A DNA stretch of 40,000 nt from positions 1 through 40,000 of the forward strand of contig JAZSIW010000009.1 in assembly GCA_045534025.1 (NCBI GenBank). The letters run 5' to 3'. Positions 19,134-38,338 of this stretch are shown one piece after another. The position numbers were made by a program, and so were the translations under genes. Each line of letters opens with the position of its first letter. Position 1 is the first letter of the stretch. The DNA comes from Eubacteriales bacterium. GTDB lineage: Bacteria > Bacillota > Clostridia > Oscillospirales > CAG-382. The notes beneath the pieces were generated by a model. It did no database searches, had not been told where the DNA came from, and was given only the letters and a program-made list of their open reading frames with translations.

Positions 19134-20711
19134 TCACTTGCCCTCCTCCCTCATTTTCAAGAGCAAGGAGCGTACTTCCTTCATAACGGCTACAACGCTG
19201 TCGTCCTTTGCTGCCGCCGCTTTTGCTATCTTTTTTTCAAGCTGTCCCACAACCATAGGCATAGACATATTCTGAGCCGCATTTTGAGCGTTTGCAACCA
19301 CGAGAGGCGTGTTGCCCCATTCGCCTTCAAACTCCTCAAAATCATCGCCAAGTGCGGAATATGCAATCTCCTTGGCCTTGTTGGGCGTGAGTCCGCCCGC
19401 CTTCTCCGCTATGGTAAGTATCTTGAACATATCGTCGGGGTTGGTTGTCTTCGGCTCCTTGAAGTACACCTCTACAAAACGGAAATTGTAACCGTTAAGC
19501 AAGCGGTTGTTGATAATCCACGCAAGGCTTTTGCGCTCCGGTTGGAATACTTGCTTCTCGGTTATCTCTTGCGCCGTCTGTGCTGTGGCACGGTTAAAGT
19601 CCGTTGTATAGCCTACATAGAGGTCGGGAAGGTTGAAAGCGGATTGGGCTCTGCGGCGGTTGTTGTCCAAATACTCTTGGAACAGTTCGTCCTTTTGCAA
19701 AATAGAGGCGAGGTCTTTTATCTCTACCTCTGCGGGCTTTTCTCCCTCGAATACCGCTGCGTTATCTGAGCTCTCTGTTTCAAGCACTATAAAAGCGTGT
19801 TGCCCTGCTTCGCCCTTGATGTCGTTCATATACTCGGTCAGCTTGGTGAACGAGTCCTCGGTGAGCGTGCCGCCTTTAAGAATTATCATCAGAGGCGTAT
19901 GCCTGCCGTTGCGGAAATAGTTGTTGTTAAGCTCCTCTGCACGTCGGCTCCCGTCTACGCCGAGTATCTGACCCGCCCATCGCACTTCTCCGTAAGGCTC
20001 GGTGCCTAACGCAAACTCCAACAGTTCGTTGGCTTGGTCTTTGAGGTCTAATTTTTCGCCGTCTGCAAGGTAATCGCCGCTATACTTATTCATAATACGG
20101 GGGTCGCCAAACTCCTTGAAATAGACGGTTTTGCTGCCTACCGTTTGGCGATATTTACGGAATTTGCGGTCGCGCTTCACTACCTTGCCCTTGTAGTTAA
20201 ACTCGGTGCTTATATAAGGCTCTAACAAGCGGGTCTTTTGTACCGACGGGATATCCTTTACGTACTCGATTTGCGCGACGTTCCCCTCAAGGTTGCGTAT
20301 GCACTCAAGGTACGCTATGCCGTAGGTTTCCCTGCCATCTATAATGTCCTTGAATATCTCCGTAGCGTCGCAATCGTAGTTAAGGAGGTCTATAATCTCC
20401 TCCGCCTGTGCGTACTCTGCCGCCATTTCGGAGGTTTCTTCTTCATCGACCTTATACCTCAAGCCGATGCCGAAGCCTGCTATGTTGTTTTTGTACGCTC
20501 TGATGCATTGAGGCAGAATGGAGGAGTTAAGCACAAACTTCTTCAAGCCTTGCAATTCAAAGTCGGGCGTTATCCATTCAGATGCCGACACAGCGGTTGC
20601 GCTGTCAAACTGCTCCGTTTTGTCTGATTTAAGCAAAGGTTGAGGGGCGGCGGCTCCTTTGATTATCTTAACCTCGTAGCCGGGCCTTTTCTTTAACGTC
20701 GCTTCCATCAC
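19134..20711 (-). CDS. Portal protein
   Basis: 525 aa. ATGA overlap with terL. Its position between terL and the gp7-like gene and its size are typical of portals. Confidence 0.8.
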   Translation of the reverse strand: MMEATLKKRPGYEVKIIKGAAAPQPLLKSDKTEQFDSATAVSASEWITPDFELQGLKKFVLNSSILPQCIRAYKNNIAGFGIGLRYKVDEEETSEMAAEYAQAEEIIDLLNYDCDATEIFKDIIDGRETYGIAYLECIRNLEGNVAQIEYVKDIPSVQKTRLLEPYISTEFNYKGKVVKRDRKFRKYRQTVGSKTVYFKEFGDPRIMNKYSGDYLADGEKLDLKDQANELLEFALGTEPYGEVRWAGQILGVDGSRRAEELNNNYFRNGRHTPLMIILKGGTLTEDSFTKLTEYMNDIKGEAGQHAFIVLETESSDNAAVFEGEKPAEVEIKDLASILQKDELFQEYLDNNRRRAQSAFNLPDLYVGYTTDFNRATAQTAQEITEKQVFQPERKSLAWIINNRLLNGYNFRFVEVYFKEPKTTNPDDMFKILTIAEKAGGLTPNKAKEIAYSALGDDFEEFEGEWGNTPLVVANAQNAAQNMSMPMVVGQLEKKIAKAAAAKDDSVVAVMKEVRSLLLKMREEGK

Positions 20712-22111
20712 TTCTTATCCCCTTTCTTTATTTCGTTTTTTATAGGGACGCATAACAAAAGAACGCAATCCGCCTCGTCGGGTGAAGGCAAATCGCGTTT
20801 CTTCATATCGTCTTTACTCTCTATTCGGATTTTGCTGTTTTCGGTAAGCCTATACTTTCTGCCCGAAAGTTGAGCTACCAAGTCATCGTCGTCCGGTAAT
20901 ATAAGCTCTACCGGTTTTGGCTTTCTTTCCTCGTCAAAAGGGGAAAGCAGGCTTTTAACCGTAGCCATCATATACGATGTGCTGTCGTGGTAATGTTTGT
21001 GCTTGATGCGCTGCCCAAATTTAATCGGCACTATGTTCATTTGTGTGAGGTTATCCGGGGCGTTTCTCTTTAGCTGTCTTAGCCTATCTACAACGCCACC
21101 GCCTACGCCGCCGTCGTCCACGCATACTGTAACGGCTCCTTTGTAGCCGGGGTAGCGCTTCAATAGGTCATAGTACAGTAACACTATATCGTCCGCCGTT
21201 TTCATTGTGTCTTGGCCGTGGCGCTTCTTATCAAGCGTTACCTTTTCGTCTACCTTGGAGCCTATTATAGTCTTATCGTCGCCAAATCTCGCAACGTCGC
21301 ACCCTATACGGATTGAATGTGGTACCGCCGCCGGTGTGTACTCTGTCATTATGGAGCGCTCAACAAGCGTTATCGGTATGAATACATCTGAGTTGCTAAG
21401 AGGAAAATCCCCCGCAACACGTACTCGGAATACGTCGCTATCCTCTCCGTACATTCGGATTATGGTGTCAATAAACTCTTGAGATACACGGCTGCTTTTC
21501 CTGCCGTCTATGTGGAATGTCTTGTATGACGCTCTGTTTTTGTTGTGGCTGTCGTAAAAGAAGCCGGAAAGCTGTGTAGGGTTTCCACACATTAAAAGCC
21601 TTGCGCCGGGCGTTGATAATGCACCAAGCACCGGCTCGAATATGTTATCTCTTACGCCGCTTGCTTCGTCGATGATGTAGAGAATATCGTCTGCGTGAAA
21701 GCCCTGTAAGGCGTCCGGCTTTGTTGCCGTTCTTGCTACCGCAAACCATTCCTCGGAATACCCCTTGAGGTATACTTTCTCACGGGTCCATACAAATTCT
21801 TTTTCAAGCGCCGGCGATTGCCTTAACCACTTGCTTACCTCCGCCCAAAGTATATCGAACAACTGATGCTGCGTCGGTGCCGTGCATGCTATTTTTGGGA
21901 ACGGCCTTGTAGACATAAACCATATAAGGGCCCACGCCTCAACAGCGCTCTTGCCTATACCGTGTCCGCTTCGTACCGATGTCATTGTGTTGTCGGCAAC
22001 ACTTTGCAGTATCTCCGCTTGCTGCGGGTCGGGCTTAATGCCTATGAGGTCTTCTACGAAATGAACGGGATTTTTAGCATAATACAGTATGGCGTCTTGA
22101 CTCAAACTCAT
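20708..22111 (-). CDS. terL: Terminase large subunit
   Basis: 467 aa. Walker A SGHGIGKS, Walker B ILYIIDEASG, and a C-terminal nuclease-like region. ATGA overlap with terS. Confidence 0.9.
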   Translation of the reverse strand: MSLSQDAILYYAKNPVHFVEDLIGIKPDPQQAEILQSVADNTMTSVRSGHGIGKSAVEAWALIWFMSTRPFPKIACTAPTQHQLFDILWAEVSKWLRQSPALEKEFVWTREKVYLKGYSEEWFAVARTATKPDALQGFHADDILYIIDEASGVRDNIFEPVLGALSTPGARLLMCGNPTQLSGFFYDSHNKNRASYKTFHIDGRKSSRVSQEFIDTIIRMYGEDSDVFRVRVAGDFPLSNSDVFIPITLVERSIMTEYTPAAVPHSIRIGCDVARFGDDKTIIGSKVDEKVTLDKKRHGQDTMKTADDIVLLYYDLLKRYPGYKGAVTVCVDDGGVGGGVVDRLRQLKRNAPDNLTQMNIVPIKFGQRIKHKHYHDSTSYMMATVKSLLSPFDEERKPKPVELILPDDDDLVAQLSGRKYRLTENSKIRIESKDDMKKRDLPSPDEADCVLLLCVPIKNEIKKGDKK

Positions 22112-22614
22112 TCGCCGTCCCCCTCCATTCTGTTTTTATATGCTGAAATAATGGTGTCAGCGAGGGATGCAGTTTGTCCGGGGCCGTTTTCGCCAAAGTC
22201 GGATATGCTCTCCTGCCTTGTTTCCTTTTCGAGCTTTGTTCCCAACGAAAGAAAGCGGGCTATATCTTTTGCCGACAAATACTTCAAACTGTCGAGGGCT
22301 TTTACCGCCTTTTTCTGCAAAAGCATCGCCGTTTGTATCTGCCTGTCTTGCATCTTTTTGATGGCGAGTTTCTTTTCTTCAAACTCTTGACGGCGCAAAT
22401 CGTTCTCGTAATCACGAACACGCTTCGGCCATTCCCACATACTGCTCCATCTGCCTATGAGTGCGTGGGATTTGTTCAACTGCTGTTCAACTTTTCGTAA
22501 AGTGCGCTCCCCGCCCATTTGGAGATACAAGTAAAAAGCTTCATAAGCCTGTGCGCTTTCGTTTGGCTGACGTTCCCAAGACAACAAATTCTTGCTCCCT
22601 TTAGCCTTTGCCAT
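22108..22614 (-). CDS. terS: Terminase small subunit
   Basis: 168 aa. N-terminal ESAQAYEAFYLYLQMGGERTLRKVEQQLNKSHALIGRWSSMWEWPKRV pattern (HTH) is common in Firmicutes phage small terminases. Located directly upstream of terL. Confidence 0.7.
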   Translation of the reverse strand: MAKAKGSKNLLSWERQPNESAQAYEAFYLYLQMGGERTLRKVEQQLNKSHALIGRWSSMWEWPKRVRDYENDLRRQEFEEKKLAIKKMQDRQIQTAMLLQKKAVKALDSLKYLSAKDIARFLSLGTKLEKETRQESISDFGENGPGQTASLADTIISAYKNRMEGDGE

Positions 22615-23905
22615 TATCCTCCTCTCCTTTTAGGGCGTATTTATAAACTATGTCGCCGTTTTCGTCTCTGCCAACGGGTCTGAGTATTCCTCCGTACCCT
22701 TTTGCCGGGCTTGTACCCTTGTTGGGGCTGTTCCAATTATCCCTAAGAAACTGCGACATTGTTGTATCATAATTTAACGCACGGTTTTTGTTGTTTCCCG
22801 TGTTGTAGCCTGCGGCTCCGACCCAGGGGAATGAAAAATATTTGTCGATGTTTTCTGAAATATCGGGCCATCGCACCTCTCCGTTTTCTCTTGCTGTTAT
22901 AATCGCTTGACCGAGGTTTCCCGTTTGGCTTACGTCCCATTCCGGTGGTACGCCGCAACAGTTACAAGCATCGTTGCATTCACGGCAAAAAGCGTCGCTA
23001 ACGTGGAAACGCATACCGAGGCTGTGGACGTATTCCCTCATATCGTGGATAATCGGTGCCTTTATGCCTCGGTTAAGCCTCTTGTAGCCATGTTGGGTGC
23101 TATTCTCCATATAGTATTTGTGTATGTCAAAACCACAAATCTTGCTCATTTCAGCGTATCGCTTCTTGAGGTTTTCGTCGGCTCTTGCTTCCATACAGAA
23201 AAACTCTGTCGTAACACTGTCGGCTCCGGCTTCGTGTGCCATTGATATAAGCTTCTTGTAATCCGAGGAAACTCCGAGGATAAACGGTCTAAGGCGTAGT
23301 GTTACGTGTATACCGATGTCTGAAAGCCTCTTTATTGCGGCTATCCTTTCTTCCGGTGAGGGCACGCCCTTTTCTATCCTTCGTGCCTTTTCTTTGTCTG
23401 CGGTTATTATGGAGATTTTAACGTGCCAATTATGGGTGTGTCTCTTGAACAGCTCCATATATCTTTCGTCGGCCGTCCACCAAGCAGCTTTTGTGCTAAA
23501 AGAAAGCGGGTAGTCTATTTTGTCGAAATACTTAAGAAGCTCCAACGTAACACCGTATCTACGCTCCCATTCGTCAAATTCGTCCGCAAGCCCTCCCCAT
23601 TGCATTATCCTGCGATTTTGGATATATGGGAAGAATTGTTGTTCCGTCTTAGTTACTCCCTCGGTATTGTTCAGCATAGCATTCTCAAATAAATTTATAA
23701 CCTTTTGAGGGTTTATGCAACGAGGTGCGCCGCCGCCTCCTATATAACCGTTTAATGTATGGCTTTTTTGGAAATAAGAAAAACAGTAAAGGCAGTTGTA
23801 AGCGCATTTGCTGTATGTGTCGAGGCTCATGGGCATCGAGCAATCGGGGATTTCCATGCTCCACCTTGGTGAGCTATAGTTTTGCTTTAATTGCTTTTCG
23901 TCCAT
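22601..23905 (-). CDS. Radical SAM enzyme, SplB/COG1533-like, 434 aa
   Basis: Start set to ATG 23905 (RBS TAGGAG overlapping the upstream stop). CX3CX2C cluster CAYNCLYC near the N-terminus and a C-terminal Cys cluster CRECNDACNCC. The 3' end overlaps the terS start by 14 nt. Confidence 0.8.
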   Translation of the reverse strand: MDEKQLKQNYSSPRWSMEIPDCSMPMSLDTYSKCAYNCLYCFSYFQKSHTLNGYIGGGGAPRCINPQKVINLFENAMLNNTEGVTKTEQQFFPYIQNRRIMQWGGLADEFDEWERRYGVTLELLKYFDKIDYPLSFSTKAAWWTADERYMELFKRHTHNWHVKISIITADKEKARRIEKGVPSPEERIAAIKRLSDIGIHVTLRLRPFILGVSSDYKKLISMAHEAGADSVTTEFFCMEARADENLKKRYAEMSKICGFDIHKYYMENSTQHGYKRLNRGIKAPIIHDMREYVHSLGMRFHVSDAFCRECNDACNCCGVPPEWDVSQTGNLGQAIITARENGEVRWPDISENIDKYFSFPWVGAAGYNTGNNKNRALNYDTTMSQFLRDNWNSPNKGTSPAKGYGGILRPVGRDENGDIVYKYALKGEEDNGKG

Positions 23906-23916
23906 GCTTTTTTCTC

Positions 23917-24501
23917 CTATTCGTCTATTCTTATAACTGTTGTTTGCGAACCTTCTTTTATCTGCCCGGTGAAGCCTTCGTCTTCGGCCCACCTCTCTGC
24001 ATAGAAGCTGTTTTCAAATACAAGGGTTACAACATAGCTGCCGCCTAAGATTTCTCCCTCGTATTCATCGTCCCACTCACCAAAGTCTGAGTCGTCTATG
24101 AGGTCCGAATTGTTGGCAAGTATAACGGCTATTTCGTCTTCCGAAAAGCCCGAAAGCGCTGCCACTTCGTAATCGAAGTCTTTTAATATCGCTTCCAACT
24201 TTTCGTAGTCCCATTGCCCCTTGATTTTGTTAAGCGCTACATTAAGCAGCTTTTCGTCTGTTTCGTCGAGGTCAACAACAGAGCAAGGGATTGTGTCGTA
24301 TCCTAAATGTTTCATAACGGCAAGGCGCTGATGGCCGCCTACTACGTTGCCCGTTCTTTTGTTCCAAACAATAGGCACCACATACCCTATTTCGGTGATG
24401 CTCCTTTCGAGCTTTTCCCACTCCGGCATCCCCGGTGCCAATTCTACACGGGGATTGTAAGGTGCTGCGTTAAGCTGCGCTATCTTAATTTCCTGTACCA
24501 T
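23917..24501 (-). CDS. ParB/Srx N-terminal domain protein (paralogue 2) with acidic linker and small C-terminal domain
   Basis: 194 aa. APYNPRV...VPIVWNKRTGNVVGGHQRLAV (ParBc-type core), then LNVALNKIKGQWDYEKLEAIL, an acidic stretch, and C-terminal YVVTLVFENSFYAERWAEDEGF. RBS GGAGGGG. Confidence 0.75.
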   Translation of the reverse strand: MVQEIKIAQLNAAPYNPRVELAPGMPEWEKLERSITEIGYVVPIVWNKRTGNVVGGHQRLAVMKHLGYDTIPCSVVDLDETDEKLLNVALNKIKGQWDYEKLEAILKDFDYEVAALSGFSEDEIAVILANNSDLIDDSDFGEWDDEYEGEILGGSYVVTLVFENSFYAERWAEDEGFTGQIKEGSQTTVIRIDE

Positions 24502-25099
24502 ACTCTGTCCCCTCCATCTTGATTGTTATGTTTCGGGCTGCGTCTTTGTATTCCGCCTCTACTCCTCTGTCTGTAAGCCACTTTTCGGCGGCTTCCTTTG
24601 TAGGAAAAGAAATAAACACGTGGAACGGCTTTTGACGCTCTACCGGCTCCGTTTCTTCGTCCGCGTCGTCGTCCGTTTCCTCGTAGTCATCCGTGTCGTA
24701 TTCTTCTTCACCGAACATACTTAAAAGTTCCTCCGCTGTAAAGCCGGTGTATTGTATGTCGTCGGCGTCTATTTCGTCAAAAAGCTCCTCCAATTTCTTG
24801 TAGTCCCATTCGCCGTCTATCTTGTTGATAGCGATATTAAGGAGCTTTTCTTGTTCTTCATCAACTTCTATAAGCACCACTTCCGCCTCCGTTTTTCCCT
24901 TATCTTTTAACACGGTGAGGCGTTGGTGCCCGCTTACGAGGTTTCCGGTGGTTTTGTTAAGCACTAAAGGCTCCACCAAATCAAATCGGTCAAGGCTGTT
25001 TTTCAAAGCCTCGTATTCGTCGTCGCCCGGTTTCAAAGCCTTTCGGGGGTTATAATCTGCCGGGCGGATATCTTCGAGTTTCATTATGGCGGTTTCCAT
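24485..25099 (-). CDS. ParB/Srx N-terminal domain protein (paralogue 1) with acidic linker and small C-terminal domain
   Basis: 204 aa. ADYNPRK...EPLVLNKTTGNLVSGHQRLTV, then LNIAINKIDGEWDYKKLEELF, the acidic run EYDTDDYEETDDDADEETE, and C-terminal FHVFISFPTKEAAEKWLTDRG. Confidence 0.75.
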   Translation of the reverse strand: METAIMKLEDIRPADYNPRKALKPGDDEYEALKNSLDRFDLVEPLVLNKTTGNLVSGHQRLTVLKDKGKTEAEVVLIEVDEEQEKLLNIAINKIDGEWDYKKLEELFDEIDADDIQYTGFTAEELLSMFGEEEYDTDDYEETDDDADEETEPVERQKPFHVFISFPTKEAAEKWLTDRGVEAEYKDAARNITIKMEGTEYGTGN

Positions 25100-25100
25100 A

Positions 25101-25862
25101 CTATTTAGCTCCTTTTCTTCGTTTTAGCTTTACGCTGTTTTCCTTTGAGGGGATAATCTCAAGTATGTCCCCGTGTTTTCTCTTGAGAAGCTTTAACATA
25201 TCGGTTTTGCGCTTCCACGCCTCTGCGCATCCTCCGTCTGCAAATCTGTCAATATCAGCGCAGGTGTCGTCTATGCTAACAAAAGCTCCGTAGCGTTTGA
25301 TTATTTGAGCACACATATCGGTATCTTGGAGGACAACAAAGTTGCGGTCAAATCGCAAATCCGTATTTATCAAGCCGTAAAAGCCCGTATCGCACAGTTT
25401 CCGTCTGTTATGGCCCGGCCGCATAAACATAGCGTTCCTTGTCATTGAAAGCCCAAAGCCAACCGTCTTTTCAAGCCTGCAAATTGCAAACCCTCTGCGG
25501 CAAAGAGTTAAAAGCTCTTCGAACTTTTGTACGTTAACGAGCTTTCGCTTCCCCGTTGCTTTATCTATCGTAAGGCGTTTTATCGCTTTTATGTCGTCTT
25601 CCAATATTACAATTTTTACGCCCTTTGAGTGGTAGTCTAAAAGCGTGTTAAAATTATCCGCAGCGCAACTCCCCCCCCGGTATAAGAAGGCGCCTACACG
25701 CTTGTTGACTCCTGCACGGGTGTACGCCTGCCGGTCCTCCTCTGTCTGCACGGAAAGAGATATCCAATCTTTCGGACATCCCATCGACTCAAGCAAATCG
25801 AGCGTTTTTTGGCGTCCGGCTCTTTTGTAGCTTGGTATGCAAAATAAAAATTCGGGCGTCAT
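25101..25862 (-). CDS. GT-A-fold-like transferase (paralogue 2)
   Basis: 253 aa. N-terminal FCIPSYKRAGRQ resembles the GT2 IPTYNR block. DxD-like IVILEDDI. C-terminal GGCAEAW is shared with the upstream paralogue. ATGA overlap with the upstream gene. Confidence 0.5.
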   Translation of the reverse strand: MTPEFLFCIPSYKRAGRQKTLDLLESMGCPKDWISLSVQTEEDRQAYTRAGVNKRVGAFLYRGGSCAADNFNTLLDYHSKGVKIVILEDDIKAIKRLTIDKATGKRKLVNVQKFEELLTLCRRGFAICRLEKTVGFGLSMTRNAMFMRPGHNRRKLCDTGFYGLINTDLRFDRNFVVLQDTDMCAQIIKRYGAFVSIDDTCADIDRFADGGCAEAWKRKTDMLKLLKRKHGDILEIIPSKENSVKLKRRKGAK

Positions 25863-26626
25863 TCTTTTTTCTTCTTTCTCAAATCTATTCTGTTGTTATC
25901 TCGCAATAGCACCCTTGCTTCGTGGGGCTTGTTTTTCTGTGGTGCTAAAATGTTTGGGTAAGCCTTGGAAAGTCTCTCTACGGTCTTTAAATTTTCGTCT
26001 GAGTGCCAAATTTCGTAGCAACCGCCTGCATTCGTCCGATGCTTTGCATTCGGGGCGAGAAAATTGTATCGCAACACTTCTCCGCCACCTTCGAGCACCC
26101 TTGCACACATTTCTATGTCTTCTTTTGTTTTGTAGCTTTCGTCGAACAACAGCTCATGCCCTTTTGTGAAGCCAATTACCGTGTTCACCGTAACCGTCGT
26201 CGATATGCTCGGCGACATAAAAAAAGCGTTATGCACGGGGTAAATCCCGAACAACGACGCTTTCCTCTTTTGTGCCATATTAAAGCACTTGTTTAGTAAT
26301 TCTGCGAACTCCTCGCGTGTATCGATGGGTACGAGTTTGTTTCCTCTAAGCTTCCCTATGCTTGAAACATCATCGTCAAACATAAGGATATTTGTGGCAC
26401 CCGAAAAATACCTCAGAGCGTTGTTCCTTGCTGCCGCTACTCCGTTTGCCGGGGTAAGGATTATGTTCGCCCTGTCTTCGTGCTTTTTGTAAGCCTCTCT
26501 GTCATTTGCGGTTTGCACAAAAATGTATATACGTTCTTTGGGTATTCCAAGCCCCGATAAATAATCAAGTGTTATCTGTTTTTCGGCTCTCCTGTATGAA
26601 GGTATTGCCATTACAAAGTTCTCCAT
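25859..26626 (-). CDS. GT-A-fold-like transferase (paralogue 1)
   Basis: 255 aa. RBS GAAGGAGGG. MAIPSYRRAEKQ, DxD-like ILMFDDDV, and C-terminal GGCYEIW. Confidence 0.5.
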   Translation of the reverse strand: MENFVMAIPSYRRAEKQITLDYLSGLGIPKERIYIFVQTANDREAYKKHEDRANIILTPANGVAAARNNALRYFSGATNILMFDDDVSSIGKLRGNKLVPIDTREEFAELLNKCFNMAQKRKASLFGIYPVHNAFFMSPSISTTVTVNTVIGFTKGHELLFDESYKTKEDIEMCARVLEGGGEVLRYNFLAPNAKHRTNAGGCYEIWHSDENLKTVERLSKAYPNILAPQKNKPHEARVLLRDNNRIDLRKKKKE

Positions 26627-27068
26627 TAGCTACCCTCCTTCTCAACTCTGTCGAGCTTAATCCGTGCGCCCTGCTATTATAATAAATTTCGATGCCGAGG
26701 TCCCTGCAGGCTTGCTTCCCGGTGAAATCTTTGTCTCTATAATCTTCCCCTACAAATCGTATGTCTATGGGGAGTGAGCGAATGGCTAACTCCAAGTCTG
26801 CCTCGCTTTCAAGTGGTACTACCTCATCTACGGCTCTGTGGCCCACAAGCTGGGCGTATCGTTCGAATACCGATTGTACGGGCTTGTTTTTGAACGGTCT
26901 GTCCGTAGTCGGGTCTGTTATTATGCCGACGTATAAATAGTCGCAGTACATTTTACATTCATCGAGCATCAACGAATGCCCTGCGTGTAACAAATCTCCT
27001 ACAACCGATGTGAAGCCGATAATTAACGGCTTTGCGCTTTTTTTGCTACTCGCTAAAGAGCTGTCCAT
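26565..27068 (-). CDS. Cytidylyltransferase-family nucleotidyltransferase (TagD/ECT/RfaE-II-like)
   Basis: 167 aa. GFTSVVGDLLHAGH carries the HxGH signature. Also YVGIITD and the C-terminal RAHGLSSTELRRRV (R..G.S[ST]T motif). Confidence 0.75.
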   Translation of the reverse strand: MDSSLASSKKSAKPLIIGFTSVVGDLLHAGHSLMLDECKMYCDYLYVGIITDPTTDRPFKNKPVQSVFERYAQLVGHRAVDEVVPLESEADLELAIRSLPIDIRFVGEDYRDKDFTGKQACRDLGIEIYYNSRAHGLSSTELRRRVANGELCNGNTFIQESRKTDNT

Positions 27069-28131
27069 TCTTATCTATCATCCCTTTTGCCATGGTTTTG
27101 ACTATCTGCTTCCCTTTTTCGTCTTTATATCTGTACAGCCTTATAATGTACATCAAGTGGAGCCCTACAACGATATCGTAAATGCCCCTGCGCTTGAGTA
27201 TGCAATCCAATGTTGCGAGGTATGCCGTGTTGTTTGCTTCACTTATGCCGAAAGCGTATTCGTATCCGCTAAGCGACATTCTAAGCTTAGCAAAATCTAA
27301 AAGGTAGCTTGAGCTTTCTCTAAAATAGCGTGGGTCTATGAAATAAAGCTGCCCATCGTCGCCTTTGATGATATTGCTTAATATCATATCGCCGTGAGAA
27401 TAGCTTGCGTGCCTGTGAAAAGCTTCTTTGTGATGTGTGATAAAACGCTTGCACAAATCTATTATCCCGTTCATTTCTTTGTCGCTGGAGTAATTGCCTT
27501 CCAAAATCTCAATATGCGGTGTTATGTCAAACGCTGCCTTCCTTCTCTTTGAAAACTCAAGGATAGTAAATAAGACTTTGGCAAAATCTTCGTCGGTAAA
27601 GCAGTCTACAAGGTTTTTCCCTTCTATGAAGTCCATATAAACTGCGTTGTATAGGCAAGAAATAACCCTCGGAAACTTGCATGCGCCGGCGTTATCTTCG
27701 ACCCATTCGCGAAAACGGGCGGTATCTTCTACGCTCCCAAGCATCTTTTTTACCGTTTTGCCGAGGCGGTATATAGGCTTGTTAGAGCCTCCTCCGTGTA
27801 ACATTCCAAAGGTACCGGAGTGGAAGTCTGCTAAGTTAACCGCTTTGTCGTCAACATACAAATCTCCGATGGGCTTGCCGAATATCAGTTCATCGCACGG
27901 CACATCGTGCTTTTTTAGCCACCTTATTATCTGCGCTCGATTGCGGGCCTCTATCAACGCTAAATCGCCGTTGCATGAAACCTGACCTCTTGCTGTGTGA
28001 ATGACTATCTCGCATCCATCCTCTTTGAGCTGCCGCATCTTCTCGACAGTTTCAAGAATGGGCGTAGCGTTCTCGTAATCACGATTTATGTGAGTGCTTA
28101 TGGTGTCGTCTAAATCAAATACTATGCGCAT
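27046..28131 (-). CDS. Fusion protein: small HAD-superfamily phosphatase (N-terminal) plus choline-kinase/APH-fold kinase (C-terminal)
   Basis: 361 aa. RBS GGAAGGAGAGG. HAD motif I VFDLDDT, motif II IHTAR, and motif III/IV GKPIGDLYVDDK. Kinase part has LHGGGSNKPIYRLGKTVKK, catalytic HGDMILSNII, and YFIDPRY. Confidence 0.7.
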   Translation of the reverse strand: MRIVFDLDDTISTHINRDYENATPILETVEKMRQLKEDGCEIVIHTARGQVSCNGDLALIEARNRAQIIRWLKKHDVPCDELIFGKPIGDLYVDDKAVNLADFHSGTFGMLHGGGSNKPIYRLGKTVKKMLGSVEDTARFREWVEDNAGACKFPRVISCLYNAVYMDFIEGKNLVDCFTDEDFAKVLFTILEFSKRRKAAFDITPHIEILEGNYSSDKEMNGIIDLCKRFITHHKEAFHRHASYSHGDMILSNIIKGDDGQLYFIDPRYFRESSSYLLDFAKLRMSLSGYEYAFGISEANNTAYLATLDCILKRRGIYDIVVGLHLMYIIRLYRYKDEKGKQIVKTMAKGMIDKNGQLFSE

Positions 28132-28160
28132 CGTTCCTCTCCTTCCTTTCGTTGATTTAA

Positions 28161-28198
28161 AGAAAAAACAGCCCTATCCGTAGATGGGCTGTTTTTTA
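28161..28198 (-). terminator. Strong intrinsic terminator in the leader of the late operon (bidirectional-looking)
   Basis: Minus strand reads AAAAAACAGCCCAUC-UACG-GAUAGGGCUGUUUUUUCU. The stem is 7+3 bp with one bulged A, with a tetraloop and a U6 tract. It ends ~30 nt before the RBS of the 28131 gene. Confidence 0.8.
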
Positions 28199-28252
28199 GG
28201 GGAACGTATGAAGAAAATATCAAAAACATATTTGCAATATTTTACATCATAT

Positions 28253-28281
28253 ATTCTACCACACTCTTTTTGCCTTGTAAA
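28253..28281 (-). promoter_or_regulatory. Sigma-A/sigma-70-type promoter: TTTACA - 17 nt - TGgTAGAAT
   Basis: Minus strand has a -35 TTTACA (28281-28276), a 17-nt spacer with an extended-10 TG (28261-28260), and a -10 TAGAAT (28258-28253). It lies in the 189-nt gap after the regulator gene. Confidence 0.6.
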
Positions 28282-28320: not shown

Positions 28321-28989
28321 CTAAAACTTTTCTATGCCGCAAATCCCGTACAAAAGGGAAGTGAGGCAGGAAACGGCGGCGTCTATGTCCTTGTATACTG
28401 TGCGCTTGTCTATATGCTCCGTGTTGGCTATGCTCTGCGCCGTGGTAGGGATTTCGTCAAGGTACATCGCCTTGAGTATGCGGTAGTGCCTTTTGTCGTC
28501 CTCTCGGTTGGAACGTTCACACATAAGAGCGTAAACATCAAGCATACGGTTAACGTGGGTCATTATTATCTTTGTGCGTACCGTGGAGCTTTTTATGGCC
28601 TCCACGCTAAAATTATCTTCGTAGCCCTTGCTTGACATCATTTCCATAATGTCGATAAAGCTTTCGTCTACTTCTTCCGCCTGTTCTATTTCAAAAATGG
28701 CGTTATTAAAGTGTTCGTTGAGGTGCCTATAGTTCTGCATAAGGAGCTTCGTATTGTGGTATCTGCGGTCATATTGACGCTCTCGGAGCTTCTTTTTCTC
28801 ACGCTCTATAGATTTAATAGCCGCTTTAGCTCCTACCTCTGCACCTACCGCCGCACCGATTTGTGTGCCAAGAGTAATGGCCGCTTTAAGCTTTTCGTCG
28901 ATGTTTTTGTTTGCTACGTCATAAGCTGCGATAACGGCTGCCTTGATTATTTCCTCGATTTCAAGCCCCGTCCTGTTGTTTGTTCCCAT
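28321..28989 (-). CDS. Putative late-gene transcriptional regulator (ArpU/RinA/sigma region-4-like C-terminus)
   Basis: 222 aa. RBS GAGGAGGTG. Central RRYHNTKLLMQNYRHLNEH and C-terminal HTH-like YRILKAMYLDEIPTTAQSIANTEHIDKRTVYKDIDAAV. It is the last gene before the late promoter. Confidence 0.45.
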   Translation of the reverse strand: MGTNNRTGLEIEEIIKAAVIAAYDVANKNIDEKLKAAITLGTQIGAAVGAEVGAKAAIKSIEREKKKLRERQYDRRYHNTKLLMQNYRHLNEHFNNAIFEIEQAEEVDESFIDIMEMMSSKGYEDNFSVEAIKSSTVRTKIIMTHVNRMLDVYALMCERSNREDDKRHYRILKAMYLDEIPTTAQSIANTEHIDKRTVYKDIDAAVSCLTSLLYGICGIEKF

Positions 28990-30495: not shown

Positions 30496-30792
30496 TCACC
30501 CCCAATCCAAAGCCTGTCCGCAGTCCGGGCAGTAAGCACAGCCCCAATTATTGATACCGTACTCAAAGTCGCCGTTACCGCAGTTCGGGCATTTGGCGTT
30601 ATCGTAGATGAGGTTTCCGTCCTCGTCGTAGCCGTCGCCCCAAAATTCGGGTGGTTGCGGTATTTGTTTTAAGATAGCCTTTCTTCCGATTTCGCAAGCC
30701 TCGTTTACAGGCTCAATACTCTCGTAGTGTTCGCGGTGCGTCGGGTCAAGGATTTCGGCGGCTCTTTCGAGCATCATTTCCTGTTTGCTCAT
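30496..30792 (-). CDS. Small zinc-ribbon protein
   Basis: 98 aa. CPNCGNG...CAYCPDCG (two CxxC pairs). Confidence 0.55.
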   Translation of the reverse strand: MSKQEMMLERAAEILDPTHREHYESIEPVNEACEIGRKAILKQIPQPPEFWGDGYDEDGNLIYDNAKCPNCGNGDFEYGINNWGCAYCPDCGQALDWG

Positions 30793-31193
30793 GCACCCAC
30801 CTCCTCAATGGCTTTTATGACCTCCGCTGTGGTCTGTCCTTTTTTTATTCCTACCATAATTGCGGGCGGTGTCGGCATTTCTGCCGCGATAGGCCGCCAA
30901 AGGTGAAGGCAATTAGGGATGTTATTTACATATTCGCTCTTTGCCGGGTGATACTGTACTACGGTTTCATTTTCTCTGAAAAACATATCTTTCAGCTTGC
31001 ACATATCGTCCCATGACGGCGTTATCTTCCTGTTGCACGGTGCTACGCTAACGTGTTCCCAACCTCCGCCGTTGCTCCATATTACCGTAGCCCAACGTTT
31101 ACCGGCTTGAAATATCACTCCGCACCCGCCGTCGGGAGCGGTCCGGGCGATAAGTAAATTCGGTATGTTTTTGAGTTCTTCGTTTGTCTTCAT
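30789..31193 (-). CDS. Conserved phage protein of unknown function
   Basis: 134 aa. GGGWEHVSVAP...PSWDDMCKLKDMFF...VVQYHPAKSEYVNN.PNCLHLWRP is a pattern I recognise from many phage early regions. Function unknown. Confidence 0.55.
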   Translation of the reverse strand: MKTNEELKNIPNLLIARTAPDGGCGVIFQAGKRWATVIWSNGGGWEHVSVAPCNRKITPSWDDMCKLKDMFFRENETVVQYHPAKSEYVNNIPNCLHLWRPIAAEMPTPPAIMVGIKKGQTTAEVIKAIEEVGA

Positions 31194-31885
31194 TTAGCTG
31201 CCTCCATTTCTGCCCGTAGGGACTCTTTGATGTAGTAGTTGAGTCCAAGCTGCCGACAAAGCGTTTCGGCTCTCCTGCCAAAGTCCGCCCAATCAATGTT
31301 GGATTTGTGATAGTTCAGTTTGCCGATTTTGACCTTATCGACAATCGGTGCTACCAAGTGTAGGTTGATGAAAAACTCTCTATCATCGGTTACGGGCTCG
31401 AATGATACCCAAGTCTTTATGCCGAGGCTGTGCGCCTGTGCGAGAGCGTCAACCCTTGCTTTCCATTGCGGGTTTCTGCCGTTGCCAATACCGTCGAGGG
31501 TTATGCCGTACCAATCCTCCGGACCGAGCAAATCAAAATCACGGCTGCCGTCGCCTTTGGTGAGGATTTGCACGTTATTACCGGTGCTTTTCAGTAGGGA
31601 GATTATCTCGCGTGTTACGGTGGTGTCGTAACCGTGAGGGTATGGGTCGCAAGTAAAACAAAGGTGTATAAGCTTCCCTTTGATGCCCTCATGCTCTATC
31701 TGCTTCCGTGTTTCTTCGACGATGTTCGGCTTTGGCTCTACAACGCTATGGAATTTTTCTCTGTCTTTATGTAAGACATTGGGCGCAAAGCAGTAATAGC
31801 ATCTATGAGGGCACCCCGTGTATATGTTTATTGCGTAGTCTCCGTATTCTTTTGCTTTGCCCTTTGGTATGTAAATAGGCTTCAT
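31190..31885 (-). CDS. Radical SAM enzyme, short SplB/COG1533-like, 231 aa
   Basis: INIYTGCPHRCYYCFAPN carries CX3CX2C in the context N.Y.GC.H.C.YC typical of COG1533 'DNA repair photolyase'-type radical SAM proteins. Confidence 0.75.
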   Translation of the reverse strand: MKPIYIPKGKAKEYGDYAINIYTGCPHRCYYCFAPNVLHKDREKFHSVVEPKPNIVEETRKQIEHEGIKGKLIHLCFTCDPYPHGYDTTVTREIISLLKSTGNNVQILTKGDGSRDFDLLGPEDWYGITLDGIGNGRNPQWKARVDALAQAHSLGIKTWVSFEPVTDDREFFINLHLVAPIVDKVKIGKLNYHKSNIDWADFGRRAETLCRQLGLNYYIKESLRAEMEAAK

Positions 31886-32314: not shown

Positions 32315-33109
32315 CTAATGTTTGTCTAATTGACTTATAAGTCCTTGCAACGGGAAATTCATCCAAAGCTTTTCTGTTCTGTGTAATCCCATTTGCGCCG
32401 TTGTATCAATTAAATCCGTGTACCACCCATCAAGCATAGAGTTATATAATTCGCTGTCGTATCCGCTAATAACGACTTTTGCGTTGCTGTTAAGCAAGGC
32501 GCCCAAAAGGTCCCTATGCTTTTCTTCGGACATTTCGCAAGCATACATATTTCTTTTCCGCAAACTTGGCAGATACGGGGGGTCACAATATATAAGCGTA
32601 TCCGAGCTGTTGTATCGCCTAATAAGCTCAATGGCATCTATTCTTTCTATTTGGGCATCTTTAAGCCGCATACAGCAACTTTGTATAATCTGCGGCAAAT
32701 CATTCCACATAGTTGCACATCGAGGACCGCCATAGGTTTGTACATTGCGCCAGCTCCTTTTACTGCTGTTGCTTGTTCCAAAAGATTGATGATACCGCAC
32801 CAATGTCCTCCGAGCCTGCTCAACCGGGTCTACAGAACGGTGGTAGCACTCTTCAAATTCTTGCCGGCTGAACGGAGTAAGGCTTATTGCTCTTGCAAGT
32901 GCATCGGGCTGTTCTCTGCACACTTGAAACAAATTCACAATGTCGCCGTCAATATCGTTTATCGTTTCTATATAGGTTGGGGTCTTTTGAAAAAACACGC
33001 CGCCCGACCCAAAGAAAGGCTCTAAATAAACCTTGTGTTCGGGGAAATGCGATATTATCCATTGTGCTATGCGCCACTTTGCGCCGGGATACTTAAGAAT
33101 TGCTTTCAT
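32315..33109 (-). CDS. dam: Dam-family (D12 class) N6-adenine DNA methyltransferase
   Basis: Start set to ATG 33109 (RBS AAGGAG). LKYPGAKWRIAQWI, motif I EPFFGSGGVFF, motif IV LIYCDPPYL. Confidence 0.85.
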   Translation of the reverse strand: MKAILKYPGAKWRIAQWIISHFPEHKVYLEPFFGSGGVFFQKTPTYIETINDIDGDIVNLFQVCREQPDALARAISLTPFSRQEFEECYHRSVDPVEQARRTLVRYHQSFGTSNSSKRSWRNVQTYGGPRCATMWNDLPQIIQSCCMRLKDAQIERIDAIELIRRYNSSDTLIYCDPPYLPSLRKRNMYACEMSEEKHRDLLGALLNSNAKVVISGYDSELYNSMLDGWYTDLIDTTAQMGLHRTEKLWMNFPLQGLISQLDKH

Positions 33110-33419
33110 TTTGCATCTCCTTATGCTGTAGTTCGCCGTAACTGCAATAATCATTTGGGTCAAGTCCGTCAGTCATAAAATAAGAACACACAATATCATC
33201 TCCCGAATAGTCGGTAATATCCAATGGGTCTTTTTCCATATTTGCCACATTAAATTTACAATCTTTACACCTTACCACTTCCACAACATCTGCGGTGGGT
33301 ATCTTTGAAAGGTTGGGAGAATACTCTTCTCCGTGGTCGCAATAAGTATTACAACCGCTGTTACTATGATGTCGGCAAGTCTCACATTTGCCTAAATATT
33401 TTGTGTCAATATAGGGCAT
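33093..33419 (-). CDS. Small Cys-rich protein (paralogue B)
   Basis: 108 aa. CETCRHH..GCNTYCDHG, VVRCKDCKF, NDYCSYGE. Confidence 0.55.
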   Translation of the reverse strand: MPYIDTKYLGKCETCRHHSNSGCNTYCDHGEEYSPNLSKIPTADVVEVVRCKDCKFNVANMEKDPLDITDYSGDDIVCSYFMTDGLDPNDYCSYGELQHKEMQNESNS

Positions 33420-38015: not shown

Positions 38016-38338
38016 ATCGTCGCCTCCTCCGTGCATATCTTTATACCGATAATAACGTGTTCCGGCGTATGTGTCGTGCCTCTGTCGTACAGCGTAGCCG
38101 TGTCGCCGTCAAACTCCCAAAACGGAGTTTTGCTCCAATATAACCAAGAGCCCTTGCCGCAGTTGGCGGCGGACACTTTGCTTTGAGGCTGCCCCGGAAT
38201 AATACTGTAAAAGCCCTGCGTATTTGCTATGTTTACCTTTCGCCTCTGCCCTATGTATTCGGGCCTACAATGGGCCGTTACTTCAAATTCTGCGCCGGGG
38301 GTTAGCGCCTTCTTTAACTGAGATAAATTTTTAATCAT
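38012..38338 (-). CDS. Hypothetical protein
   Basis: Start set to ATG 38338 (RBS GAGAGG). 108 aa. The longer ORF would overlap the loader gene. Confidence 0.5.
   Translation of the reverse strand: MIKNLSQLKKALTPGAEFEVTAHCRPEYIGQRRKVNIANTQGFYSIIPGQPQSKVSAANCGKGSWLYWSKTPFWEFDGDTATLYDRGTTHTPEHVIIGIKICTEEATI

Follow-up and report, generated by a model that had tools for sequence, protein, structure and literature searches.

In kinetoplastids, base J is made by the thymidine hydroxylases JBP1/2, which are 2OG dioxygenases, and by the glucosyltransferase JGT. Thymine is converted to 5-hydroxymethyluracil (5hmU), to which a GT-A-type transferase adds glucose through an O-glycosidic link, a logic that is well established and is outlined in the introduction of PMC13229309. 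The 5mYOX176/ParB176 pathways (O'Toole et al., PNAS 2026, PMC13229309) also modify DNA after replication. They use an Fe(II)/2OG dioxygenase and one ParB-fold helper, ParB176, which is the activator of the phage T-dioxygenase and whose closest structures are chromosome-segregation ParBs. Their partners include glycosyltransferases, P-loop kinases, AADTs, GATase, HAD, APH, and GNAT, and are often encoded near terminase genes. In the contig 53 module (Pyle et al., bioRxiv 2023 / Cell Rep 2024), 5hmC is produced by a C5-methyltransferase and TET, and the co-expression in E. coli of HAD-APH, a CTP-transferase, and a GT-B glycosyltransferase resulted in mono- and di-heptose on 5hmC, all three genes being needed for both. 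In phages such as M6, ViI, and SP10, which have 5-HMUDK and aGPT-Pplase (AADT), a dUMP hydroxymethylase provides 5hmdU ahead of replication, and a phage polymerase builds it into the DNA. The Pseudomonas phage M6 also encodes gp53, an isomerase of N-alpha-glycinylthymidine in DNA that is a radical SAM enzyme resembling spore photoproduct lyase (SPL). The latter performs thymine-methyl radical chemistry on DNA.

We analyzed a stretch of 40 kb (hereafter the window) of a contig of ~57 kb. An ORF check revealed a cassette of seven tightly packed minus-strand genes at 22601-28131, flanked by a promoter and leader on one side and by terS on the other. We think it fairly likely, from sequence comparisons and structural models, that this cassette is a system of late, post-replicative thymine hypermodification, in which a ParB-assisted radical SAM enzyme would make a chemical handle without O2 and transferases would add heptose. 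The features are the following:

28253..28281, minus strand: sigma-70-like putative promoter of the late operon, TTTACA-17-TGgTAGAAT with extended -10 (consensus match only)
28163..28196, minus strand: leader hairpin between promoter and g1, with an A-run and a T-run on its flanks, intrinsic-terminator-like
27046..28131, minus strand: g1, HAD phosphatase (residues 1-~112) fused to an APH-fold kinase (residues ~115-361), 361 aa
26565..27068, minus strand: g2, cytidylyltransferase-fold nucleotidyltransferase (RfaE domain II/TagD-like), 167 aa
25859..26626, minus strand: g3, TAGT-family GT-A DNA glycosyltransferase, first paralogue, 255 aa
25101..25862, minus strand: g4, diverged TAGT-family paralogue, second glycosyltransferase, 253 aa
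24485..25099, minus strand: g5 (ParBa), free-standing ParB/Srx protein, 204 aa
23917..24501, minus strand: g6 (ParBb), paralogue of g5, predicted partner/activator of the radical SAM enzyme on dsDNA, 194 aa
22601..23905, minus strand: g7, SPL-like radical SAM enzyme, proposed initiating DNA-base oxidase, 434 aa from the ATG
22108..22614, minus strand: terS (phrog_6299, E=3e-26), overlapping g7 by 14 nt
20708-22111: terL, downstream of terS
19134-20711: portal, downstream of terL

The initial annotation described seven co-oriented genes with overlapping or abutting boundaries, preceded by their own promoter and leader hairpin. All seven ORFs are indeed on the minus strand, and the promoter and hairpin were both located (28281-28253 and 28196-28163). 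From g1 to terS, the junctions are overlaps of 23, 62, and 4 nt (ATGA), a 1-nt gap, an overlap of 17 nt, an 11-nt gap, and the overlap with terS. Hence, the description of the boundaries fits most junctions, the exception being the 11-nt gap between g6 and g7 if the latter starts at the ATG at 23905; an alternative upstream GTG start would give a protein of 463 aa. The domain calls made for the seven genes also hold given the Pfam, NCBIfam, PDB, and motif evidence. The putative promoter, the best site of the region, has 10/12 matches and a TG ahead of the -10. The leader folds at -33.7 kcal/mol (z = -4.2), and 0/200 shuffles were as stable. Since the hairpin resembles an intrinsic terminator, it suggests that the late operon is under antitermination control. 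On the plus strand, a mirror of the hairpin is found at 28173-28188.

By sequence, the half of the cassette devoted to donor synthesis and transfer is of a known kind. The HAD part of g1 has the motif DLDDT and matches TIGR01689 (E=1e-23) and the PDB entry 1xpj (E=1.7e-17), while its kinase part has the APH-type motifs HGDMILSN and IDP. In three relatives (L010, L011, and L064) the equivalent of g1 is split into a PF01636 APH gene and a HAD gene. The protein g2 has the motifs HAGH and RAHGLSST, matches PF01467 CTP_transf_like (39.2 bits, cut-off 21) and phrog_7878 (E=2e-25), and is nearer to RfaE domain II (TIGR02199, E=3.4e-16) than to TagD (E=5e-12). We predict that g1 is a sugar kinase/phosphatase of an NDP-heptose route and that g2 makes the NDP-sugar donor. 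The Pfam family TAGT is that of the TET-associated DNA glycosyltransferases. It is matched over its full length by g3 (PF20691, 52.8 bits, cut-off 27.5), which also matches phrog_842 (E=1e-22) and has the motifs IPSYRR and DDD. The paralogue g4 (30% identity, E=3e-30), with the motifs IPSYKR and EDD, scores 18.2 bits against PF20691, under the same cut-off. The set of HAD-APH, cytidylyltransferase-fold, and DNA glycosyltransferase genes is that of contig 53, to which we liken the cassette by architecture, and this common architecture suggests that the appended sugar is probably a heptose. The differences are the presence of two GT-A TAGT proteins instead of a GT-B enzyme, the lack of a detected methyltransferase or TET in the cassette, and an acceptor that is probably thymine-based instead of 5hmC.

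The next two proteins, g5 and g6, share 35% identity (E=2e-40). In g5, a nucleotide-binding domain is followed by a helical segment, an acidic linker, and a small C-terminal domain, and the structures nearest to the AF2 model of g6 are the ParB CTPases 6sdk, 7bm8, and 7bnr. Both proteins have a nucleotide-binding domain, a helical segment, a disordered linker, and a C-terminal domain, without a DNA-binding domain, which is the layout of ParB176. In contrast to the 5mYOX176/ParB176 pathways, the cassette has two ParB paralogues, and an SPL-like radical SAM enzyme is in the place of the Fe(II)/2OG dioxygenase, of which none was found here. The word "radical" is absent from the paper describing these pathways (PMC13229309).

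The radical SAM core of g7, with CX3CX2C at C34/C38/C41, is common to SplB and M6 gp53, and all three act, or are proposed to act, via a thymine 5-methyl(ene) radical in DNA. The protein is COG1533-like and scores far under the NCBIfam cut-offs of PA0069/Rv2578c. Its AF2 model (pLDDT 84) has spore photoproduct lyase as best match, and the top six PDB matches are all SPL; searches by sequence gave no match between g7 and SPL. The homology to M6 gp53 is weak (19% identity, E=3e-4). Unlike SplB and M6 gp53, g7 has an additional C-terminal region of ~120 residues and the cysteines C22, C316, and C317, which are conserved family-wide (C237 partly). Conservation of the Cys-rich stretch C307/C310/C314 does not extend beyond the close clade, and an auxiliary cluster in g7 is therefore no more than a possibility.

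To place the cassette among its relatives, we used 71 related loci, of which 58 with at least 3.5 kb upstream served for the partner counts. A constant core, ParB-ParB-radical SAM-terS, is found across the ~58 phage or prophage loci: at least one ParB beside the radical SAM gene was scored in 57 of them (the ParB of L073 is diverged), and two in 52. The gene terS is directly downstream of the core in 65 of the 71 loci. The neighborhood survey proposed in the initial annotation thus shows that the radical SAM and ParB families recur upstream of terS. A TAGT is present in 36 of the 58 loci and a P-loop kinase in 18, so that 54 have one of the two, and none has both; in 7, the kinase comes with an AADT and a GNAT. 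These variable partners, whether TAGT or P-loop kinase with or without AADT, are enzymes that depend on a 5-hydroxymethylpyrimidine. Accessory genes, including glycosyltransferases, are often placed between ParBb and the radical SAM gene, and in other variants the latter is paired with a PLP enzyme or an FkbM methyltransferase. The radical SAM domain is also found in Pfam-confirmed fusions: after a TAGT (P0243 and P0244), before it (P0252, P0258, and P0264), or between a Ploopntkinase3 and a TAGT (P0260), and there is a kinase::radical SAM fusion in L005. P0244 adjoins a ParB, P0260 an AADT gene, and P0264 a GATase, an AADT, and a P-loop kinase. Genomically, g7 would thus be the constant, initiating enzyme, in contrast to SplB and M6 gp53, which act in repair or late tailoring. 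The hosts that could be assigned from genomes (17/17) are strict anaerobes of the gut or rumen, unlike those of the 5mYOX176/ParB176 pathways, and in such habitats a dioxygenase that needs O2 would hardly be useful.

The initial annotation saw no trace of the 5-HMUDK/aGPT-PPlase route. This does not stand, since in close relatives a P-loop kinase, an AADT (PF18724), and a GNAT replace the glycosyltransferases, although the cassette of the window itself lacks the P-loop kinase and the AADT. The kinases of the relatives show no significant similarity to the characterized 5-HMUDKs of cultured phages, and neither a dUMP hydroxymethylase nor a phage polymerase like those of M6, ViI, and SP10 is encoded in the examined regions of these phages. 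We searched for other sources of hydroxymethylpyrimidine with Pfam in the cassette, the early/replication ORFs at 28-40 kb, and two ORFs of the structural region at 1-19 kb, and found no match to TET_JBP, thymidylate-synthase-like, or C5-methyltransferase families. None was found either in the Pfam-annotated contexts of the relatives, including the fusion loci, and the first two are absent from the families listed (best 25 of 68) for 149 representative neighbors. C5-cytosine methylases account for at least 5 of these 149, one being directly before the radical SAM gene (L073), which means that 5mC could be the substrate in some members.

In the proposed pathway, g7, aided by g5 and g6, would attack thymine in double-stranded DNA. 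As comparative genomics and fold lead us to infer, the 5'-deoxyadenosyl radical would take a hydrogen off the C5-methyl, and the allylic radical would be oxidized and capture water, giving 5hmU or an equivalent hydroxyl handle, i.e., the job of TET/JBP without O2. Hydroxylation requires an electron acceptor. The identical architecture of the contig 53 module suggests that g1 and g2 would make NDP-heptose, probably from a heptose phosphate. Then g3, a TAGT member, and its paralogue g4 would add one sugar, and perhaps a second, to the hydroxymethyl group, leading to a heptosyl- or diheptosyl-oxymethyluracil that resembles base J. Relative to base J, a radical SAM enzyme would take the place of the 2OG dioxygenase and probably heptose, maybe two, that of glucose, in a different organism and for a different purpose. 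Because the cassette is in the same late operon as terS and terL, the modification of progeny DNA would take place shortly before packaging or as it proceeds, and would presumably shield this DNA from host nucleases.

Could g7 instead be a downstream tailoring enzyme, with the hydroxymethylpyrimidine coming from an unrecognized source (a divergent 5mYOX, the host, or an outside gene)? M6 gp53, a distant homologue also Cys-rich at its C-terminus, is the only characterized SPL-like radical SAM enzyme in DNA hypermodification and is a tailoring isomerase. O'Toole et al. (PMC13229309) report thousands of 5mYOX-like contigs lacking a TET/JBP Pfam match, and the rest of the contig leaves room for one. 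However, g7 is found whatever the appended group (sugar, phosphate, or amino acid), and it would thus need a common substrate, thymine or the primary handle. Furthermore, P0260 and the adjacent AADT gene together hold kinase, radical SAM, glycosyltransferase, and AADT and nothing else catalytic. Each of the seven cassette genes has an assignment, and the core is not accompanied by any conserved gene that lacks one. We regard this explanation as rather unlikely. It is also improbable that g7 initiates a pathway of different chemistry or target, such as 5mC to 5hmC, another hydroxyl or thiol handle, or an electrophilic 5-methylene to which phosphate or another nucleophile would add directly. The C5-methyltransferases of some relatives, including that of L073, would fit it, as would the activity of characterized TAGT enzymes on 5hmC, the pairings with PLP or FkbM enzymes, and the additional conserved cysteines of g7, which could serve sulfur or covalent chemistry. 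Yet, the ORFs scanned in the window include two methyltransferases, both of the N6-adenine type, and no detected C5-methyltransferase, AADT and Ploopntkinase3 have to date been described only for thymidine (5hmU) pathways, and the SPL fold is built around the thymine-methyl radical.

The initial annotation also listed virion or envelope glycosylation and signalling-nucleotide chemistry, for which we found no support. Sugars could go to virion proteins or teichoic-acid-like polymers, with the ParB and radical SAM genes forming an unrelated repair or packaging module of the same operon: the best NCBIfam and PDB matches of the HAD domain are capsule-biosynthesis phosphatases, the usual annotation of COG1533 enzymes is DNA repair photolyase, and ParB-like genes beside terS are common in phages. 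Against this, g3 is in the TAGT family, several phages encode TAGT and radical SAM as a single fused protein, glycosyltransferase genes are interleaved within the ParB-radical SAM core, and the alternative partners AADT and P-loop kinase are DNA-specific. As initially annotated, the seven proteins lack transmembrane helices (maximal Kyte-Doolittle 19-residue window of 1.25); they also lack signal peptide-like stretches. Phages of gut anaerobes have small need for UV spore-photoproduct repair. Such a scenario is very improbable.

Returning to thymine hypermodification, the families, neighborhoods, and fusions strongly support the initial proposal of a DNA modification with a phage-made nucleotide-activated donor and radical chemistry, of which we infer the chemical steps. 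The accompanying claim that no known route is recognizable stands for TET/JBP and dUMP hydroxymethylase, which were not found in the regions searched, but not for the TAGT glycosyltransferases, the HAD-APH/cytidylyltransferase pair, and the ParB activators, which are known. As the donor and transfer genes are of known kinds, the novelty is narrower and seems to be the replacement of TET/JBP by a radical SAM enzyme at the start of the pathway. To our knowledge, no radical SAM enzyme has yet been established as a hydroxylase of DNA. If our reading is true, these phages would have an oxygen-free way to hydroxylate DNA.

The window is a phage or prophage sequence in which every gene lies on the minus strand, and the cassette of seven genes (g1 to g7) is enclosed by the following features.

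Features of the window around the cassette
28.3-40 kb, minus strand: replication/early module, with a DnaC-like loader, two N6-adenine-type methyltransferases, SSB, and RecU
28321-28989, minus strand: 222-aa protein of PHROG 1558 (phrog_1558), without Pfam match, adjoining the cassette upstream
28163-28281, minus strand: promoter and terminator-like hairpin, ahead of the first late gene
22601-28131, minus strand: g1 to g7
After the cassette, minus strand, in this order: terS, terL, portal, MuF-like protein, structural genes

The coordinates of the seven reading frames in the initial annotation were borne out. Their boundaries had been described as overlapping or abutting, which holds everywhere except between g6 and g7, where there is an 11-nt gap if the ATG of g7 is at 23905, a start backed by the alignment of homologues. 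In order, the junctions are overlaps of 23, 62, and 4 nt, a 1-nt gap, an overlap of 17 nt, this 11-nt gap, and an overlap of 14 nt with terS; terS and terL overlap by 4 nt, and so do terL and the portal gene. The promoter and leader hairpin proposed ahead of g1 are both present. The promoter is the best sigma-70-like site of the region upstream of g1, with an extended -10 that matches the consensus, and is followed by a stable hairpin flanked by an A-run and a T-run (z = -4.2 relative to shuffled sequence). Since this hairpin is shaped like an intrinsic terminator, the late operon is probably opened by antitermination. The phrog_1558 protein is found at the same position in many relatives and is a candidate late antiterminator or activator.

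The first four genes of the cassette resemble the components of a known pathway of DNA glycosylation. The N-terminal part of g1 is a HAD phosphatase (motif DLDDT, TIGR01689 E=1e-23, PDB 1xpj E=2e-17) and its C-terminal part an APH/choline-kinase-fold kinase (motifs HGDMILSN and IDP). In three related loci these domains are encoded by separate genes, of which the kinase gene matches Pfam APH. The product of g2 is a cytidylyltransferase-fold nucleotidyltransferase (motifs HAGH and RAHGLSST) whose best curated match is the RfaE/HldE heptose-1-phosphate adenylyltransferase domain, TagD being second; its top matches, phrog_7878 (named for the HldE heptose kinase/adenylyltransferase) and TIGR02199 (RfaE domain II), hint indirectly at a heptose. 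The product of g3 matches the full length of TAGT (profile positions 4-205 of 205) with 52.8 bits for a cut-off of 27.5. That of g4 scores 18.2 bits, under the cut-off, yet it is a clear paralogue of g3 (E=3e-30), and the pair has the GT-A DxD-type motifs DDD and EDD. TAGT, for "TET-associated glycosyltransferase", is a family of DNA base glycosyltransferases (Pfam PF20691). In one viral contig (contig 53), a bifunctional HAD-APH enzyme, a cytidylyltransferase, and a glycosyltransferase are all required to place mono- or di-heptose on 5hmC, with dC products of 449 and 641 Da (Pyle et al., bioRxiv 2023). The cassette likewise has a bifunctional HAD-APH and a CTP_transf_like protein beside a DNA glycosyltransferase, a likeness to contig 53 that is one of architecture.

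The last gene of the cassette, g7, encodes a COG1533/SplB-like radical SAM enzyme (rSAM) with invariant CX3CX2C cysteines (C34, C38, C41). It scores below the curated cut-offs of PA0069 (69.6 bits vs 360) and Rv2578c (48.5 bits vs 430). Sequence and profile searches of the PDB gave no match, and the fold search alone was informative: the AF2 model (pLDDT 84, pTM 0.87) has as its top six Foldseek matches in the PDB only spore photoproduct lyases (SPL; E=3e-6, TM 0.46-0.57). Structure prediction, which had been proposed as a check, thus agrees with the SplB/COG1533-like assignment of the initial annotation. SPL chemistry runs via a thymine-methyl radical in flipped-out DNA bases. A search of 1.84 billion representative proteins with a profile of the g7 family gave 2042 members at E<=1e-3, of which 213 representatives (50%-identity clusters) reach E<=1e-30; g7 belongs to this family, which is distinct from PA0069 and Rv2578c. 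Besides the cysteines of the SAM cluster, C22, C316, and C317 are kept across the family (93-96%) and C237 in 65% of it; they could be ligands of a second cluster or take part in hydrogen or electron transfer. A CxxCxxxC stretch at 307-314 is conserved in the close clade only, and we rejected it as a family-wide auxiliary cluster site. At least ten representatives (P0246, P0259, P0267, P0270, P0276, P0293, P0330, P0339, P0340, and P0355) have large intein-like insertions, mostly at or within the CX3CX2C motif, and some of these proteins have a second one downstream.

The window encodes a second, small radical SAM protein in the early region (31190-31885, minus strand, 231 aa), of the same PHROG as g7 (phrog_13321), with the gene of a DUF7694 protein directly downstream (30789-31193, minus strand). 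It may be another DNA-acting radical SAM enzyme. In 18 loci of relatives a DUF5131 protein takes the equivalent position, and in one locus (L138) a similar gene lies near a ParB gene, with one 214-aa ORF between them. Since it is absent from related loci, we rejected it as an obligatory partner of the cassette.

The initial annotation had suggested surveying gene neighbourhoods for the co-occurrence of these families upstream of terS, and this co-occurrence was found, with a constant core and interchangeable accessories. Homologues of g7 came from 52 IMG/VR viral contigs, ENA/Logan contigs, and 17 GTDB genomes, and the survey used the 58 loci in which 3.5 kb or more of sequence precedes the rSAM gene, a few being duplicates of the same contig. 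The succession ParB-ParB-rSAM was observed in 52 of the 58 loci; 57 have one or more scored ParBs, and the remaining locus (L073) has a diverged ParB. Directly downstream lies terS in 65 of the 71 loci with enough downstream sequence. A TAGT (36 loci) or a P-loop kinase (18 loci) is present in 54 of the 58 loci, never both. The kinase is joined by an AADT (PF18724, formerly aGPT-Pplase, 65 bits) and a GNAT in 7 loci, whereas the TAGT comes with either a SPASM radical SAM or, as in the window, the HAD/APH/nucleotidyltransferase genes. These accessory genes are often inside the core, between the second ParB gene and the rSAM gene. The co-occurrence with 5hmU-using enzymes that is expected of the ParB-dependent pathways of TET/JBP-type 5-methylpyrimidine dioxygenases (5mYOX) was therefore found here (glycosyltransferases, P-loop kinases, AADTs, GATase). 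All 16 IMG/VR relatives of the P-loop kinase subfamily sit in such clusters; tblastn against cultured phages matched it in Methylophilales phages only, and its PHROGs label is uninformative. Context and a weak Ploopntkinase3 match suggest that it is a 5hmU DNA kinase.

The radical SAM and transferase domains are also found within single proteins, as confirmed by Pfam among the best 150 of the 2042 members.

Fusions in the g7 family, from N- to C-terminus
P0243 and P0244: TAGT::rSAM, the TAGT part of P0244 being 39% identical to g3
P0252, P0258, and P0264: rSAM::TAGT (Pfam)
P0260: Ploopntkinase3::rSAM::TAGT (Pfam)
P0253: rSAM::FkbM methyltransferase, the FkbM-type domain being C-terminal
L005 (one locus of the survey): kinase fused to the N-terminus of the rSAM

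The gene of P0260 comes after an AADT gene, that of P0264 after GATase, AADT, and Ploopntkinase3 genes, and that of P0244 after a ParB gene, and there is no TET/JBP or thymidylate-synthase family within 8 kb of these three. Given such fusions, it is very hard to hold that the rSAM has no functional relation to the DNA-modifying transferases. From the P0253 fusion, O-methylation of the handle may be a further outcome.

Several relatives deviate from the common layout. The locus L001 (1426-2394) and about ten similar ones, which belong to the variant with a single long TAGT, have a SPASM-domain radical SAM gene ahead of the glycosyltransferase, and L038 (3490-4344) also has a truncated UDP-glucose dehydrogenase-like gene, which suggests tailoring of the sugar or of its donor. 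In L110 (6405-9424), L132, and L151, two ParB genes are followed by a divergent, shorter g7-like radical SAM (339 aa, about 24% identical); in L110 and L151 a 281-aa ORF lies between this gene and terS and, in L110, matches the PLP-dependent family PF00291. These three loci have neither a TAGT nor a kinase, so their end product may be different. In L073 (4239-7419), from a Selenomonadaceae MAG, a C5-cytosine methyltransferase and the diverged ParB precede the rSAM, and therefore the substrate may be 5-methylcytosine in some members. Finally, L015 (2816-3883) and two similar loci encode an S-adenosylmethionine synthetase immediately ahead of the late regulator, which fits the high SAM demand of a stoichiometric radical SAM reaction.

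The two genes preceding g7, g5 and g6, encode paralogous ParB/Srx proteins. Among the thymine dioxygenases of the TET/JBP type in phages, one subclass depends on a ParB homologue for the oxidation of T in double-stranded DNA (O'Toole et al., PNAS 2026, PMC13229309). In this activator, the nucleotide-binding and C-terminal domains are connected by a short helical stretch plus a disordered linker, and there is no DNA-binding domain; the ParB-dependent systems co-occur with glycosyltransferases, P-loop kinases, AADTs, GATases, HAD, APH, GNAT, and terminases (PMC13229309). The AF2 model of g6 has the same layout, also without a DNA-binding domain (nucleotide-binding domain 1-95, helices 99-128, disordered region 130-155, C-terminal domain 156-192), and this layout is kept in 29 aligned homologues; it is by this layout that g6 is likened to ParB176, the activator of phage 5mYOX176. 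The structures closest to the model are the ParB CTPases of B. subtilis, C. crescentus, and M. xanthus, the same as in O'Toole et al. (PMC13229309).

The pair had been said to look like the N-terminal half of ParB-methylase fusions, and the closest relatives of its N-terminal part (50-57% identity) are indeed such halves. The ParB::methyltransferase fusions related to this part have 410-470 aa and often occur as tandem pairs, and free-standing ParBs of the subfamily (about 195 aa) adjoin Mom-family enzymes and PAPS-reductase-like proteins, or C5-methylases. From these associations, the ParB module seems to assist post-replicative DNA-modifying enzymes of phages in general, which provides independent support for a DNA-modifying role of the neighbouring rSAM. 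A further layout of ParB plus DNA modifier was observed in L080, L111, and L147, where a free-standing ParB of the subfamily precedes one or two genes of the Mom family (PF25680) and then, in L080 and L147, a PAPS-reductase-like gene, and the arrangement closes with a ParB::methyltransferase fusion.

As TAGT, P-loop kinases, and AADTs act on 5-hydroxymethylpyrimidine in known systems, we looked for the source of this base. The known enzymatic routes to 5-hydroxymethylpyrimidines in DNA are two, one relying on a folate-dependent dNMP hydroxymethylase ahead of replication and the other on an O2-dependent TET/JBP dioxygenase once DNA has been replicated. No DNA polymerase is encoded in the window. 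The Pfam scan, which covered the cassette, the 28-40 kb region, and two ORFs of the structural part at 1-19 kb, revealed no TET_JBP (PF12851, at E<=0.01), thymidylate-synthase-like, or C5-methyltransferase domain; hence, by this profile and on these ORFs, the Fe(II)/2-oxoglutarate dioxygenase expected in a 5mYOX pathway is missing. The Pfam-annotated contexts of relatives gave no TET/JBP, thymidylate-synthase-like, or C5-methyltransferase domain either. When 149 unlabelled neighbour representatives were scanned one by one, the 25 families listed did not include TET_JBP, and among them were C5-methylases (5), SAM synthetase (2), and ThyX (1). Of the catalytic domains, only the radical SAM is never missing. 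In these scans, the TET/JBP supplier of the hydroxymethyl acceptor with which TAGT is expected to be associated was found neither in the cassette nor in its relatives, where TAGT is instead associated with a radical SAM domain, to which it is fused in six proteins. The literature that we searched contained no link between radical SAM enzymes and the formation of a hydroxymethyl handle, or between them and ParB.

Other roles were considered for these genes. The resemblance of g7 to SPL could indicate UV repair of the SPL type, which we rejected. We also rejected a capsule or teichoic-acid-like glycosylation; the initial annotation had seen no obvious transmembrane helix in the cassette proteins, and indeed no hydrophobic stretch in any of the seven would suit a membrane helix. 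The proximity of terS could suggest a role of the ParB and rSAM proteins at the pac site or in packaging, which was discarded as distant family members lie in replication modules far from terminase genes. A related case is M6 gp53 of a Pseudomonas phage, an SPL-like radical SAM that isomerises N-alpha-glycinylthymidine in DNA (Lee et al., NAR 2022, PMC8989533). It is a distant homologue of g7 (19% identity over 199 aa, E=3e-4) and not an ortholog. Of the type of companions that it has (5-HMUDK, clade-2 AADT, PLP decarboxylase), the Pfam-scanned ORFs of the window include no AADT, kinase, or PLP enzyme, and AADT is missing from most relatives bearing the rSAM.

The TAGT match, the conserved neighbourhoods, and the fusions give good support to the DNA hypermodification hypothesis of the initial annotation, and we consider this function of the cassette very probable. 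Its statement that no known route is recognisable does not stand, since roughly half of the pathway belongs to a known kind (TAGT, the trio similar to contig 53, and the ParB layout). The new element, a strongly supported prediction from sequences and models, is that the place of TET/JBP as initiator is taken by a family of SPL-like radical SAM enzymes working with ParB helpers. The ParB pair would help g7 to engage double-stranded DNA, a 5'-deoxyadenosyl radical would take a hydrogen from the methyl of thymine, and oxidation of the allylic radical and its capture by water would then yield 5hmU. From the characterised homologous architecture, g1 and g2 would produce an NDP-heptose, and g3 and g4, as members of a DNA glycosyltransferase family, would glycosylate the hydroxymethyl group once or twice. 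The operon shared with the terminase would time the modification to progeny DNA. That the rSAM is the initiator seems likely to us, and the complete scheme, including the conversion of T to 5hmU and the heptose, is at best somewhat favoured. Two methyltransferases are encoded in the early region besides the cassette, one of 613 aa, N6-adenine-type, with a C-terminal DUF4942 (36195-38036, minus strand) and one D12-class and Dam-like (32315-33163, minus strand); the phage thus appears to layer several DNA modifications.

All 17 GTDB genome hosts are strict anaerobes of the gut or rumen (Lachnospiraceae, Oscillospiraceae, Acutalibacteraceae, other Clostridia, Selenomonas ruminantium S137, Selenomonadaceae, and one Prevotellaceae MAG). 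In cultured GenBank phages, tblastn found no g7 gene, and a DNA similarity search of GenBank phages gave a single 343-bp match. That the identified hosts are all strict anaerobes fits the replacement of an O2-dependent dioxygenase. This may reflect sampling, as the distant family members stem from samples whose ecology is not known. We give about even chances to the boldest reading, namely that the g7 family is the first radical SAM O2-independent DNA-base hydroxylase, the analogue of TET/JBP in phages of strict anaerobes, which would act on double-stranded DNA with a heterodimer of ParB-CTPase fold and feed combinatorial thymidine hypermodifications, here a base-J-like heptosylated 5-hydroxymethyluracil.

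The prediction is directly testable, as three to seven genes suffice and a lysogen is in culture, Selenomonas ruminantium S137, whose prophage (NZ_FNJQ01000002.1, about 99.5-120.8 kb) has the kinase variant. If true, it would be a new enzymatic solution that extends radical SAM chemistry to the writing of a DNA base, beyond repair and tailoring, and an O2-independent writer of 5hmU would be a candidate tool enzyme. ParB-fold proteins would gain a second, independent client enzyme, which sharpens the question of their role for base-modifying enzymes. Gut-phage DNA with bulky sugars on T can withstand restriction enzymes and CRISPR nucleases and bias sequencing. Phages of obligate anaerobes dominate gut and rumen viromes, and the proposed chemistry would explain how their DNA can be hypermodified.
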